Of a DNA stretch of 22,959 nt, positions 3,001-9,000 are shown in pieces. A program made the position numbers. This DNA comes from a virus (lineage: Duplodnaviria > Heunggongvirae > Uroviricota > Caudoviricetes). The stretch lies in IMG/VR virus record IMGVR_UViG_2526164691_000026, one strand, 5' to 3'. Every line of letters begins with the position of its first letter. Within the stretch, counting starts at the first letter, position 1.

Positions 3001-6000
3001 GTATAATCAACCATTTTTATTTCTGATTTATCAGATTCCAGAGCATCTATAAACATCTGCTTAAGTGAGACATCAGATATAATCTTATCTAAAAAATCAG
3101 GTAAGAAAACACGCGAGCACGCTTCATTATATGCTTCACTAAACAATGGAAATGACTGTGAAAATAATTTCCCAAGTGTATAATCGTTAGTATTCTGGAT
3201 CTCTCCATCTTTAAACAAAAAAAATGATTTCCAGTATGTTGAAGAATCAGAAGATAACATACTATACATATCATTTAAAGATAACATCATTTCCAGATTA
3301 TCATCCGATGATGACAGTAAAATCCAGTTATATGCATCATTAAAATCATTCCAGTCTGGCTTAGCAGAGCCATCACCTCTACCGAAATCGCTTTGCTGTG
3401 CAATTTTATTTACATTAGGGTATTGCAGATATTTATCATATAATTCCATGAACTGATTTTTTGCTCCTTCATACTGCATACCATAAGCAGCCATTTGTAT
3501 AAATACATCATTGCACGACAACATTTTTTCTGGATGTTTTTCAAAATATATTCCAGCCTGTAAAAATGCACCATCGTTCATATTTTTAAATACAGGGCCA
3601 TCTCTCATATCGCCCGGAGGATACTTAGACCACCAGTCTGTCATAGTATTATAATAACGACCGGATATATTCTGAAGCCATTCCTGAACATAAGAACTTG
3701 CAAGATATGGAGGAATACTGAAAGCATTACTCAACGACAATGTCGCATAGGGATTAAATTTATCAAATATATCCACTGGTAATGTTCTTATCAGGTCCTC
3801 CACAGATCGAACTTTTTCATCGTTATATTTTGAATCAACTGAATTAATTGTTCGCATGACAGAAGTATCTGGAACTCTGCTGCTGTCAAGAACAGAGTTT
3901 ATGTTCTCTGAACCCACCGGAATATGTATCTGACAACAAGCTAAACCAATGCTATTATTTTGCACAGATAAAGATATATTATCTTGTTCTAAAATAGCAC
4001 CTCTAAGCTCCATCCCGGGAACTATAATAGCCCCCGCCAACTGTGCATCTTTCAGGTCTGGAGGTGTTTCTTTAAATGAAGAACCAATAAACGATGCGCT
4101 GTTAAGATTAGCACCACTAAAATTAGCTCTATCAAACGATGCGCTGATTGTGCTATTTGTCAAATCAGAGAAAGATAAATCACACTCCTCCAGAACAGAA
4201 TTCTTGAAAGATGTGTTTTTCAGGGATGCACCTGACAGGTTACAGCCACTAAGATCAGCATCATCAAATCTGGAATCAGAAAAATTTACTGATGCAAAAT
4301 TCAGCCCTGCAAGACTTAGACCTGACAAGTCACATCCAGAGTAATTTAATTGTTCAGCAGACTCTTCCCCCGTTCGGTTAGCTGACAACCACATTAAGTC
4401 AGCAGTAAGCTCAGCTTTGCTCAGGCAGGCACGGCCTTGACTGGCATCATATGCAAGGAATTGACATTGCGATTCATTTAATGAATTACATCCATTTAAA
4501 TATACGGAATTCCTGAGCGTCTCAGGAAAGGAACCATCTATATGTTTCAAAGAACTACAATGGCATAAAGATAAATTACTGACATTGTCAGGTATGCTGC
4601 AATTTATAACCTCTAATGATGAACATCCAACTATACTTAATGAAGATAAGTTGGGGGGTAAACAGTTTATTGATTTAAGCTCTGTACATCCATTCAATAC
4701 CAGTTCTTTCAGAGAACCTGGAAGCAAGTCTGGTAACGTTGTTATTGGCTCACTGATTGATAAAGTCTCTCCATTAGTACTTATAACATTAAGTATTTTT
4801 GATGCAACCTCATGACGATTTTCGCTGAATTCTCCCTCAGCGCACCACTTTTCGAGTGCAACTTTAACATCCTCGTTAGATGGTGAACCTACAGGACTTT
4901 CAAAATATATTACTCCAGAATTTACAGAGATATTTGTCGTGGGCAGCATTTATCGCACTCCTTCAACTTAGTCCACTGAAAATAACACCAATAAAAATTA
5001 AACATTATTTACAACAAAAGACTCTGTTTTGGGATCAAAATAACACTCATCTTTTCTCATAATCATTGATTCTGTTATTGGCTCTCTACTTAATGGATGT
5101 GGAGAACCAGATATAACTAACTTTAACATTGCATTTTTATCATATAGGTTACAAACTTTTGCACTTACAGAGTTCTTTATAAAAACACCATTATCTGGAG
5201 CATCTAATATTATTGGACACTTGAGATGTTCTTTTGAAAAAAAACCTCTTCCGAATGTACAGGAAAAGAACTTGAAAGTATTTTATAGCATATACCTAAT
5301 GGTAAAAAACTCAGATGAGTATCAATTACAGAGGAAATTTGCCATGAACGAAGCCTTTTGGCTGACTCATTGCTACCATTTAACCCTAACTCTAATAATG
5401 TTTTTAACATCCCATCCTTACAACCAGAAACTAAAAAAACGTCAGGGCGTTGATAATAATGAATACCAACTTTCTGCCCATTTATAGTAATATCTTTCGT
5501 TATCAGGTTTTGTCTGGCAGCTTCACGTAATATTTCAATACTCTGCAAAGCAACATTTGATGAAATGCTGGATGTTATCAATGGCATATGTCATTTACCC
5601 CAACAAGACTAAATTTTAGAAAAAACAACTGCCGGGACAACTTTCGCCCCCTGTAACCCCAAATAAGATGTCAGATTTATCGGCATTAATTTATCTCCCT
5701 GTTGAATTAGCTCCTCTATCATCTACTTAACAAATATCCCCCGGACATTGCAACACAAAAACCGGAGCCGGACTCCGGTTTTGTGAAGCTGTCAGGTTAC
5801 TTCATCCCGCCAATATTTTCCCACGTCCCGTCAGCACGCAGGATTTGCAGCGGTCTTACCACGCACTGTATCTGCTTTTTATCTGCATCCAGTATCACCA
5901 CCTGCGTGATTACCCTGTCCTGCTCCGGAATAATACCATTCTCATCGGACTCCAGGATGTCTGCCGGCCCCAGACGCAGTTGTGCTGTAAGTAACTCCCC

Positions 6001-9000
6001 GTGTTCACGGTCATCATGCTTTCCGCAACCACACAGACGCTGCATAAGTTTTTTTAGTATATTCATGTCATTCTCCTGTTCTGCCTGTATCACTGCCCAC
6101 TTCATCCAGCCCCTTAACATCCTGCCACGGCCCGTCACCAAACCTGACCTGCAAATGCTGAAACAGCCCCTGAACCCGTGTGGCATCTTTGGGGTCAAGA
6201 AAGGTCAGTCCGGTGATGAGTGCGCCATCTGTATCCGGGAACCAGCCATGGCTGTTTGTCTCAATAATGTTTCCCGGCCCCAGACGGAACCGTATTTGCG
6301 TCTCCCCCGGGTCGCCCTTCGGCCCCTGAGGTCCGGTTGCCCCCACCGGGCCAGCCGCACCTGTTTCTCCTTTCGGTCCCTGTGGGCCTGCCGGGCCTGC
6401 CGCACCGGTATCTCCCTTTGGACCCTGTGGACCTGTACTTCCCGTCAGACCGGTCTCTCCCCGTTCCCCCCTGTCGCCTTTCGGCCCCTGCGGGCCTGCC
6501 GGACCAGCATCACCTGCCGGCCCCCGTTCACCAGTTGCCCCTGCCGGGCCGGTGTCGCCACGCTCTCCTTTATCTCCCTTCGGCCCCTGAGGACCCGCGG
6601 GCCCCGGATCTCCCTTTGGCCCGGGTGGCCCCACCACGGTGGGGATTCGGTTTACGGCTTCTTCCGCCGCTATCCTGCTTTGTTCCGCTGACTGTGCGCT
6701 TTCTGCTGACTCCCGGGCTTTTTCTGTTGCTGTCGTTGCGTCTCTGGATGCATTACCGGCTGCACTTTCTGCCGTCTTTTTTGACAACTCGGCATCTGTT
6801 GCACTTTGTAATGACTCACTGGCTTTTTGAGCGGCCTCAGAGGCTGAGGACGAGGACGCTTCCTCTGACTTCTTTGCAGAGGCTGCACTTTCTGCCGCCT
6901 GCCGGGCTGACTCCGATGCATCCTCTGCTGAAGTATCAGCATTTGCGGCGCTCGCTTCCGCCTTACTGGCTGATATGCCGGCATTCCTCGCGGACGTCTC
7001 TGCTTCTCCGGCATTCTTCTTCGCCTCCTCTGCGTGACGCGCTGCTTCTTCCACCATCTGTTCAAAACGACGCAGAGCCTCCGGACGGGCATCATCCTCC
7101 GTCATGGCACCGAGAAAATCATTCAGCGTACCCGGTTGAGAATCTTCATACACGGTGATGGTCCCGACATGTGACGGCGGGAATCCCTCCACCAACAGAA
7201 TAACGCTGTACTGACCGTACTCAACGTCCATGCTGTAACGCCCGGCTTCATCCGGATTTTCTGAGGCCAGCGTGTTCACCACCACAGTGGTACTGTTACG
7301 TTTTGCTTTCAGCTGGATTGTGCAGTTCTGTACCGGTTTTCCTGTGCCGTCTTTCAGTACACCTGAAATCTTTACTGCCATATTCACCCCACAAAAAAGC
7401 CCGCCTGAACAGGCGGGCTGTCATAACACGGTGTTACCTGGCTAATCAGAATTTATAACCAACACCCACGATGAACCCGTCAGTGCGCCAGTCGCCACTG
7501 CCGGAGCCTTCATAAGCAATATCAATGGCCACGGATTCGGTCGGGTTAAACTGCACGCCAGCCCCCCACGCCAGAGACGTGTTGCTGTGGCGACCGTCAT
7601 CACTTCCGGTCAGCACATCGTGCGTTTTCCCCTTGTTGTCAGTTACGCGGAGATAATCCCCGGAGAAAGTCGACACACGGCTGTAAGCCACTCCCGCCAT
7701 CGCATACGCGCTGAACCATTCATTCACGCGCACAGACGGCCCCGCCATTACGCTGAACCAGCGGTTACGCACGGAATCTTCATGCCAGCGGGTATCGCTG
7801 TAACGGGTAATCTGGCGATTCCTGTCTCCTGCATAGCTGAATGACGTCACCAGCCCCAGCGTGTCCGTGAATTCATAACGGTATTTCACGTTAATCCCGT
7901 TAAGATTATCGCTACCGGGAGCGTTCGTCCGGGCATGAAGATACCCCGCGCTCAGCGTGGCCTGCTGCTCAGACGCCCATGCAGGCGCACCGGATACGGT
8001 CAGACAAATGGCTGCGGACAAAATGGCGGCATAAAGTTTACGCATAATTACCTCTCGCTTTTCTGCAATAAAAAAGGCGTCATTTCTGACGCCCGTTCTG
8101 GGTTATAAAATTCAGCTGATACTGATACCTGCTGTGGATTTTTTCATCACCACAACCAGCAGATCGCTGATACTTGCTGTGGGATACCTGTTATTTACCA
8201 GCCATGCTGACACCGAAAACTCCAGCGTCATGTGACCGTGACCGGCAGGCATATCAATAACGCCACTGTAAATCAGCGTATTATCCAGCGCGGTACGGTT
8301 ATAAATTTCAGCACCGTTTTTCCGCACTATCAGACGGCATGAGGAGTAAATATCAGTATGCTCTCTCTCATGTTTAGCGCCGCTGAATGCCACCGCCGGA
8401 ATAACAATTTGCCGGTCAAACGGCTGATCGTCATAAACCCTGACGGTAATGGTCCCTGATGGCCACCGCTCCGGTGCACGGGAATCCCGGGGGAAAGCTT
8501 TGCCCACTGTTTTAACGAGATCGCCTTCAATCTGGTTCGCGGACAGTTTTCCCAGAACCCGACAGTTCTCGTTAATCGTGACGTTGTTGAGCGTCCCGGA
8601 ATTCGCATTCACGTTACCGCTGATATCAGCATTTCTTGCGGTCAGCCTGCCCTCCGGCGTCAGGGAAAACGTCGGGGGATTGCCGGACGAGGTGATACTC
8701 ACCGCAAACAGCCGCTTCAGGAACACATCGTTCATGAACAACTGATTCCCCTGCGCCACAAATAACGGCGTGGTGTTGCCGTCCTCCGGGTTAATCATCG
8801 CAATACGGTCAGCCAGCAGCAGTATGTTGCTCAGGGGCTGGCCATCAGTATCCTCAATCCCCGCTCCAATACCGGCAACATAGGGTATGCCATTTTTTGT
8901 TTTCTGTACCTTCAGCATGTAAAGTGCAGCAAGGTCATCATTTGTGTCCTTCTGCACGCGCTGTATCTGCTGTATGGTGGCGCTCTGGTCTTCCAGCGTT

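Follow-up and report, generated by a model that had tools for sequence, protein, structure and literature searches.

We analysed a stretch of 22,959 nucleotides from a virus of the class Caudoviricetes (IMG/VR record IMGVR_UViG_2526164691_000026), the whole of which is called the window here, and in it a small open reading frame (ORF) that lies directly behind the side tail fibre gene and encodes a protein related to the tip of that fibre. The gene has already been annotated and published, and in this window it represents a re-discovery. In fact, its product matches at 100% the RefSeq protein WP_001023407.1, which the Prokaryotic Genome Annotation Pipeline (PGAP) names 'phage tail fiber C-terminal domain-containing protein', and its orthologues are ORF68/ECs1229 of phage Sp5, ECs_2940 and gp59 of phi24B, in whose GenBank record an RLGP motif is mentioned. 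The features of the two adjacent genes are the following:

5797-6066, minus strand, small ORF, 89 codons plus TAA, the same as WP_001023407.1
6064-6070, minus strand, TGA-C-ATG junction, with the small-ORF start 1 nt past the fibre stop and in the +1 frame
6073-6077, minus strand, Shine-Dalgarno (SD) sequence AGGAG, 6 nt before the ATG and within the last fibre codons (Gly-Glu)
5986-6066, minus strand, N-terminal part of the small protein, 27 codons without fibre counterpart
5800-5985, minus strand, PfC-type domain of the small protein, residues 28-89 (PF06820, E=5e-36)
6068-7387, minus strand, side tail fibre gene of EPclA architecture (PfN, coiled coil, collagen, PfC)
6104-6295, minus strand, the fibre's own PfC domain, residues 365-428, paralogue of the small ORF
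6071-6103, minus strand, C-terminal tail of the fibre, acidic and absent from the small protein

The junction with the fibre and the paralogy of the two products

On the minus strand the junction reads ...ACA GGA GAA TGA C ATG AAT..., where the fibre stop occupies 6070-6068 and the small-ORF ATG 6066-6064, with a single C (6067) between them. This reading, together with the AGGAG at -6, bears out the initial annotation, which had described a TGA-C-ATG arrangement and a small ORF translationally coupled to the fibre; of the span that it gave for this ORF (5797-6070), positions 5797-6066 stand, whereas the remainder had taken in the fibre stop codon. The TGA-C-ATG was the same in all of the 68 loci examined, and the AGGAG was kept in 66 of them. 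No promoter-like sites were found by a scan of the coding strand from the fibre start to the small ORF. Between the fibre stop and the NleG-family gene that comes next, the small ORF is the sole ORF, and no match to the Tfa family (PF02413) was obtained among the window ORFs scanned. The absence of tfa, also proposed at the outset, is thus confirmed, the fibre-to-NleG gap being filled by the small ORF alone.

The fibre is 439 aa long when read from the GTG at 7387, and 437 aa when read from the ATG at 7381, which is the start used by PGAP and by Ghosh et al. (PMC3368898). BLASTP of the small protein against it gave 43.9 bits (E=6e-11), with 21 of 62 positions identical (34%) and 63% positives, and paired small-protein residues 29-88 with fibre residues 366-427. 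The two proteins scored 123 and 119 bits with Pfam PF06820 (Phage_fiber_C), for which the cut-off is 25; in the small protein (123.2 bits), residues 28-89 span the whole model (positions 1-64). A full-length match to PHROG 576 was found as well (E=1.8e-60, positions 1-89 of 89). The invariant columns in the alignment of the small protein with the fibre tip make up the motif RLGP..I.E....G..P..D...DG.W. Both the alignment to the fibre C-terminus and the common RLGP...DG.W motif had been noticed initially and were recovered here with PF06820 in both proteins, and, judged from these alignments, the paralogy of the small protein and the fibre tip is correct and far beyond chance. It is worth adding that PF06820 is described at the C-terminus of a long collagen-like fibre, which is true of the neighbouring fibre and false of the free-standing 89-aa protein.

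The part without fibre counterpart is made up of a basic amphipathic helix (residues 3-12, MNILKKLMQRL) and a variable linker, CGCGKHDDREHGELLTA, which is probably disordered. Two functions were considered for this part and rejected. A lipoprotein or signal peptide, with LCGC as the lipobox, does not agree with a segment of 11-13 residues before the Cys that contains Q and R, nor with the variation of C14 (C, H, Y or R). Likewise, a metal site of the type CxC...H...H was discarded because C14, H22 and their neighbours vary and the Salmonella orthologue lacks them. At the opposite end, the last codons of the small ORF (GGC GGG ATG AAG TAA; 5799-5811) share GGATGAAGT with fibre positions 6099-6111, out of frame, the fibre side reading ...CTG GAT GAA GTG (LDEV). 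The presence of GGATGAAGT at both ends suggests that the duplicate once reached into the acidic tail and was then shortened by a frameshift.

Conservation, selection and translation

The small-ORF segment was found in 704 of 5426 complete E. coli genomes (~13%), at 7567 places and with a median of 12 per genome. It was also present in 296 phage records, nearly all of them Shiga toxin (Stx)-converting or lambdoid, and in IMG/VR the small ORF had 284 relatives and the fibre PfC 285. An exhaustive HMMER search returned 92 matches, nearly all from the E. coli group, and searches of NCBIfam and PADLOC gave no match for the small protein. Only two short contigs were retrieved by a scan of species-representative genomes, one of them labelled Xanthomonas pisi (NZ_JPLE01000138.1, 725 nt). 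It carries a small ORF 93% identical to that of E. coli and is most likely an E. coli contamination of the X. pisi assembly. A remote relative in the representative library (P0199, 565 aa) displays four tandem PfC-like modules N-terminal to a collagen region, with the pattern ...VVVLDAD...ILRVRQADGTWKEI..., and these modules match the small-type PfC (E=1e-7) better than the fibre type (E=4e-4). PfC-like modules can therefore sit as beads on one chain.

In order to have a set unbiased with respect to the small ORF, 80 loci were picked on the fibre PfC alone, and 74 had sufficient downstream sequence. The ATG was one base past the TGA in the 74 loci; the 89-codon ORF was intact in 72 and frameshifted in two. 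This survey of related loci, of a kind that the initial annotation had called for, thus shows that the arrangement of a fibre plus a mini-paralogue is kept. Pairwise Nei-Gojobori estimates on these fibre-selected loci gave, for the small ORF overall, proportions of synonymous (pS) and nonsynonymous (pN) differences of 0.139 and 0.027, respectively (pN/pS 0.19). By parts, pN/pS was 0.10 in the PfC domain and 0.34 in the 27 N-terminal codons. The fibre's own PfC showed a value of 0.14 in the same set and of 0.34 in a set selected on the small ORF. These results show that the small ORF is under purifying selection and that it is co-inherited with the fibre.

One divergent HMMER match led to a second lineage, composed of intact 79-aa orthologues in Salmonella enterica, including subsp. 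salamae. In a locus of this lineage (L178, positions 4617-6290; S. enterica GCA_007019015.2) a divergent pair of fibre PfC and mini-PfC was found. The fibre, of 468 aa, has precomputed Pfam hits to PfN, Phage_fiber_2 and PfC, with no collagen domain recorded; the linkage of the small ORF is to PfC and not to collagen. The small ORF is also in the +1 frame, with its ATG 23 nt before the fibre stop and behind an AGGAGG at the same spacing, and a hairpin with a U-run is located downstream. This orthologue retains the N-terminal pattern M-x-I-[LF]-K-K-[LI]...L but not the cysteines and histidines, and its linker is shorter by 10 residues. A similar acidic tail (EV.SD) is present in the Salmonella fibre. 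The same locus carries a GDSL lipase gene between J and the fibre, and a SopA-like E3 gene nearby.

Between E. coli and Salmonella, identity amounts to 51% over the whole small protein and about 63% over its domain, and to 38% for the fibre PfC; within Salmonella, the two paralogues share 33%. On the basis of these three values (63%, 38% and 33%), the duplication is older than the split of the E. coli and Salmonella lineages, both copies having been retained together. By the same comparison, the small copy evolves more slowly than the fibre tip.

Evidence of translation was obtained from the virion proteome supplement of a 2026 cryo-EM preprint on phi24B (10.64898/2026.04.10.717836). In it are the peptides VITQVVILDADKK and ADGTWENIGGMK, which are exact matches to the phi24B small ORF (gp59) and absent from the fibre. 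Each of them had 3 peptide-spectrum matches (PSMs), as compared with 47 for a fibre peptide next to them and 2267 for the fibre as a whole, and the authors left the gp59 entry out of their curated list of structural proteins. The two peptides and their low PSMs indicate that the protein is made, yet that it is at most a trace component of purified particles. With regard to transcription, a microarray study of strain Sakai reported that ECs_0845 and ECs_2940 were induced about 5-fold by spinach root exudate (PMC4940412). The near-identical Sakai copies cross-hybridise, so that this signal is unassignable to one prophage. A literature search by locus tag yielded this array study alone, the other matches being unrelated to the small ORF.

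These data bear on whether the small ORF could be a non-functional leftover of the duplication that is drifting, or, as the initial annotation had put it, the remnant of a tip-cassette swap. Such an origin agrees with the lack of a laboratory phenotype on deletion and with the decayed copies that we found in prophage remnants of Citrobacter rodentium and of some Salmonella or Escherichia strains. However, the ORF is intact in 72 of the 74 loci, with pN/pS of 0.10-0.19 at a pS of about 0.13; its start, SD sequence and terminator are retained in two lineages whose fibre tips are 38% identical; it is translated; and it pre-dates the E. coli/Salmonella split. A decaying remnant is thus rejected, and we consider the leftover reading already refuted by the selection and conservation data, with next to no chance of being right.

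An AlphaFold2 (AF2) model built from E. coli sequences alone was unusable (predicted local distance difference test, pLDDT, 51). With the Salmonella sequences added, the best model reached a pLDDT of 74.7, that is, medium confidence, and the other four were lower. The structure prediction called for at the outset thus yielded a model in which residues 3-12 form a helix, residues 14-23 are disordered and six strands build up a beta domain (pLDDT 78-90). The closest solved folds to this model were those of the distal part of the Mu tail fibre S/S' (PDB 5YVQ and 8JU3), the matches being to A chains of 290 and 358 residues whose entries are described as Mu tail fibre protein S/S' and as the Mu fibre-chaperone complex. 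Sequence searches of the PDB, with the single sequence and with a profile, gave no match for the small protein.

Recombination, recoding and the portable module

In a work based on systematic in-frame deletions in Sp5, Mondal et al. (2016, PMC5155283) described ORF68 as an 89-aa polypeptide made of the phage fibre C-terminus domain and proposed that it is possibly 'an intragenomic reservoir sequence'. According to this proposal, it would represent a spare C-terminal cassette that is swapped onto the fibre by recombination, thereby changing its specificity, an idea akin to the 'alternative tip' of the initial annotation. The RLGP boundary of both copies in the window contains a repeat that fits this possibility:

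5950-5976, unstranded, 27-nt direct repeat arm at the RLGP boundary, 81% identical to its partner at 6260-6286

The two arms share a 13-nt identical core, CGTCTGGGGCCGG, and two natural fusions were found. In one of them (P0063/L085) collagen is joined to a small-type PfC via microhomology, although it was seen at a contig end only; the other is a genome with the exact junction predicted. In contrast, DNA identity between the two PfC coding segments is only 54%, and the 13-nt identity was present in 3 of 72 pairs, the longest common run elsewhere being of 7-10 nt, as is also seen in shuffled controls. When the recombinant junction expected from a swap was probed with a 37-nt sequence, it was found in one of the 5426 genomes, beside a frameshifted fibre. 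Save for the contig-end fragment, no long fibre with a small-type PfC was present among the listed homologues, whose identities fell into two classes (79% or more in the small type, 28-40% in the fibre type). Moreover, a silent cassette needs neither a conserved ATG, SD sequence and N-terminal helix nor a pN/pS of 0.1, and the peptides prove translation.

Three recombination devices were also examined and rejected. A template repeat of a diversity-generating retroelement (DGR) does not fit with the 54% identity or with mismatches without A bias (30 of 86 at A), and no reverse transcriptase was detected among the window ORFs scanned. For an invertible segment, we found only short inverted repeats attributable to chance, none of the invertase type, and no invertase among the same ORFs. 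As for a recombination hotspot at the 13-nt RLGP repeat, it was discarded on the 3 of 72 pairs and on the broken fibre in the sole genome that bears the junction. There is no conserved recombination substrate. The alternative tip thus found little support, and we regard the reservoir reading as already close to refuted and very improbable.

The UGA-C and the SD-like element shortly before it recall the prfB site of programmed frameshifting. If ribosomes slipped by +1 at the GAA-UGA-C of this junction, they would read on through GAC-ATG and join the fibre to the small protein, so that a minority of fibre chains would bear two knobs in tandem; with about 1 in 20 chains fused, there would be about one double-knob chain per virion. 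The +1 frame relation is held in both lineages, and the trace gp59 peptides of the phi24B virions, about 6% of the neighbouring fibre peptide, would fit a low-efficiency fusion. The phi24B search database contained artificial fibre-gp59 fusions, 'Fusion_6159_FS1/FS2', tagged 'Spike or just gp59?'; evidently, the authors suspected a frameshift product, although gp59 is nowhere mentioned in the main text. The protein-level 'Fusion' counts in that supplement consist mostly of shared fibre peptides.

Several features of the site, however, do not correspond to a shift of the prfB type. The P-site codon GAA is non-slippery and cannot re-pair on AAU, the +1 codon, and the SD sequence overlaps GAA, a spacing that is wrong for such a shift, which calls for an SD-like element about 3 nt upstream, and ideal (6 nt) for the ATG start. 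In Salmonella the ATG is placed 23 nt before the fibre stop with an AGGAGG of its own. No junction peptide (TGEDM...) appears in the portion of the phi24B data at hand, and Mondal et al. (2016) found no frameshift signal (PMC5155283). Consequently, we give this recoding hardly any credence.

Comparison with the short-tailed Stx2 phage VT2-Sakai delimited a unit that includes the small ORF:

5755-6617, unstranded, portable module running from the collagen end and PfC of the fibre (its last ~183 codons) through the small ORF to the terminator
5754-5785, minus strand, hairpin plus U-run (intrinsic-terminator-like), beginning 11 nt past the small-ORF stop

Positions 6617-5755 are 93.8% identical to VT2-Sakai (BLASTN), and the homology ends on both sides, reaching 42 nt past the small ORF. 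From the edges of this homology, the mobile unit is made up of the shaft end, PfC, mini-PfC and terminator, and the same junction follows the 645-aa lateral fibre of the short-tailed VT2-Sakai and phi24B. To judge from these comparisons, the module moves between long-tailed and short-tailed phages, with the variable cargo genes outside it. The hairpin, a strong one with which the fibre module ends, folds at -23.1 kcal/mol (z=-4.6) and was not listed by a simple consensus terminator scan. The same EPclA fibre and 89-aa ORF are found in lambda h434 imm21 (OM418627.1, 3504-7417), which continues with NleB-, NleC- and NleH-like effector genes. Since it is a hybrid carrying the host-range region of phage 434, the module and its effector cargo are present in a classical laboratory phage.

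Upstream of the fibre the window carries two further genes:

8112-11585, minus strand, gpJ, upstream of Lom and the fibre
7446-8045, minus strand, Lom, between gpJ and the fibre

A strong, terminator-like hairpin (7398-7419, minus strand) with 9 pairs (7 of them G-C) followed by TTTTTTGTGG lies in the gap between lom and the fibre start. It fits a separate expression of lom and a late antitermination needed for the fibre and the small ORF. Beyond the small ORF there is a cluster of type III effectors formed by the NleG-family gene, a HECT-type E3 and NleC. The NleG-family gene (4999-5589, minus strand) has a 1-nt deletion with respect to the 196-aa reference gene that splits it into ORFs of 125 and 43 aa, which reflects either a pseudogene or an error of sequencing within a T-run. 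An insertion of ~1.3 kb (607-1931), found by comparison with the otherwise 98.9-99.5% identical locus of strain AUSMDU00014361, encodes an IS3-family transposase (rve, HTH_21; ORF 612-1517, minus strand) and is located at the 5' side of nleC, the Peptidase_M85 part of which ends at 627. A sodC gene (Cu/Zn superoxide dismutase; 11212-12246, plus strand) lies on the opposite strand between gpJ and the tail assembly gene I, and is a cargo gene inside the tail operon. The match to minor tail protein L (13929-14468, minus strand, 179 aa) covers positions 3-57 of a 206-position profile, and aligning the window with the reference locus opens 10 gaps. From these two observations, some tail genes may be disrupted and the prophage may be defective.

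A possible role in trans and comparison with known systems

We tentatively favour, at somewhat less than an even chance, the possibility that the small protein trimerises by itself and serves the fibre knob in trans as a partner that can be dispensed with. The small ORF is a genuine late gene, an old duplicate of the fibre knob joined to a basic amphipathic helix and a flexible linker. Ribosomes ending the fibre at the TGA would re-start 1 nt downstream at the ATG, served by the AGGAG, so that both proteins would be made together from a late transcript ending at the hairpin. The product would form a small trimeric knob of its own, and this trimer might aid the assembly or the quality control of the fibre knob or, alternatively, associate loosely with the tip, taking in either case the place of Tfa in lambda-type fibres. 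The trimer, its interaction with the fibre and the helper role are what we infer from the data; the small protein is neither a decaying fragment nor a spare cassette of DNA, and it is no stoichiometric part of the virion. It is known that the fibre-type PfC trimerises on its own and nucleates the refolding of the collagen shaft (Ghosh et al. 2012, PMC3368898).

Several observations weigh against this proposal. Recombinant EPclA and EPclB are trimeric in BL21 without a partner, and Col-PfC refolds alone (PMC3368898). In Sp5, ORF68 is a non-essential late gene (plaques and lysogeny, K-12), whereas the fibre gene ORF67 is essential (PMC5155283), and any helper role would thus not be obligatory in the laboratory. 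Searches of Pfam, PHROGs and NCBIfam disclosed no likeness to Tfa or gp38 chaperones, the fold matches being Mu fibre chains. Finally, the small copy is better conserved than the fibre tip, which is unexpected for a partner that tracks a variable tip. Considering that EPclA trimerises alone and that ORF68 is non-essential, an obligatory chaperone is excluded and a dispensable helper is not. Accordingly, of the assembly helper in the place of tfa that the initial annotation had suggested, the position holds and the obligatory chaperone does not.

The higher conservation of the small copy (about 63% as against 38% in the fibre tip) would fit a free soluble knob with a ligand of its own. In this reading a trimer released at lysis or loosely carried would bind a conserved ligand, bacterial or environmental, and might mask receptors on debris or nearby cells or act as a lectin, without any need to touch the fibre. 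Selection is in fact strongest on the domain itself, the protein is dispensable on rough K-12 and present in traces in virions, and the fold predicted in the AF2 model resembles a Mu tail-fibre chain. On the other hand, a protein without signal peptide or lipobox could not reach the envelope before lysis, a decoy freed with the progeny would block the targets of that same progeny, and the strict co-inheritance with PfC fibres is not required by such a model. We consider it the main alternative, unlikely though with a chance worth keeping in mind.

A different possibility, modelled on the T2-type gp38 or on a retained Mu chaperone, is that of a stoichiometric distal cap or adhesin, in which three copies would sit at the end of each fibre trimer, for example with the basic helix docked on the acidic tail, and constitute the outermost receptor-binding knob. 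The arrangement of the genes suggests coupled and possibly equimolar synthesis, both lineages conserve the basic helix as well as the acidic tail of the fibre, and the tandem PfC-like modules of the remote relative make stacking possible. However, the PSM counts in the supplement (3 for each specific peptide, 47 for the neighbouring fibre peptide and 2267 in total for the fibre) and the omission from the structural list do not agree with it, and in Sp5 infection survives the deletion of the small ORF but not the loss of the fibre. In addition, a cap should co-vary with the variable tip, and the small protein is the more conserved partner. A cap is, in our opinion, improbable. Roles beyond those considered here are not likely either, although we keep a small place for them.

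New in this work are the estimates of selection, the limits of the module, the lineage in Salmonella with its asymmetry of rates, the negative test of the cassette and the peptides in the supplement. The gene is found in nearly every PfC-type fibre module of Shiga toxin and effector-carrying lambdoid phages, and the 2026 preprint on the phi24B structure presents the role of the collagen-like lateral fibres as an open question (10.64898/2026.04.10.717836).

With respect to known systems, ORF68/ECs1229 of Sp5 (VT2-Sakai), gp59 of phi24B, ECs_2940 and the O157 Sakai copies are the same protein, 93-100% identical and with the same junction. They differ in their setting, since the gene of the window follows the 437-aa EPclA side fibre of a long-tailed lambdoid prophage and those of the characterised phages follow the 645-aa EPclB lateral fibre of short-tailed ones. 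The PfC of EPclA and EPclB fibres is of the same family, begins with RLGP as well and shares the conserved positions G, P, D, IT, LD, LQ and DG.W. Compared with the fibre PfC, the small protein is 34% identical, has a helix and linker instead of the collagen shaft and lacks the acidic tail. The likeness to the Mu tail fibre S/S' is modest and stems from a medium-confidence model, and the Mu domain is placed within the fibre chain and accompanied by an unrelated chaperone. The template/variable pairs of DGRs and the invertible segments of Mu and P1 likewise have a second copy of the fibre C-terminal coding sequence beside the fibre gene. Unlike them, the copies described here display 54% DNA identity, mismatches beyond adenines and a direct orientation, without flanking inverted repeats.

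The closest parallel in gene order is with Tfa-like genes, small and located directly after the fibre (lambda Tfa, Mu gpU/gp50, P2 G and T4 gp38). In lambdoid phages with other fibre tips, Tfa occupies the slot after the fibre, and the GenBank record of lambda h434 imm21 labels the small ORF 'tail fiber assembly chaperone'. In contrast to Tfa, the small protein is homologous to the tip itself, and its Sp5 orthologue is dispensable for a functional fibre. If the small protein is indeed a knob-derived partner of the knob, it would represent a kind of fibre accessory not seen in the Tfa and gp38 families and could bear on how Stx phages find their hosts in the gut.

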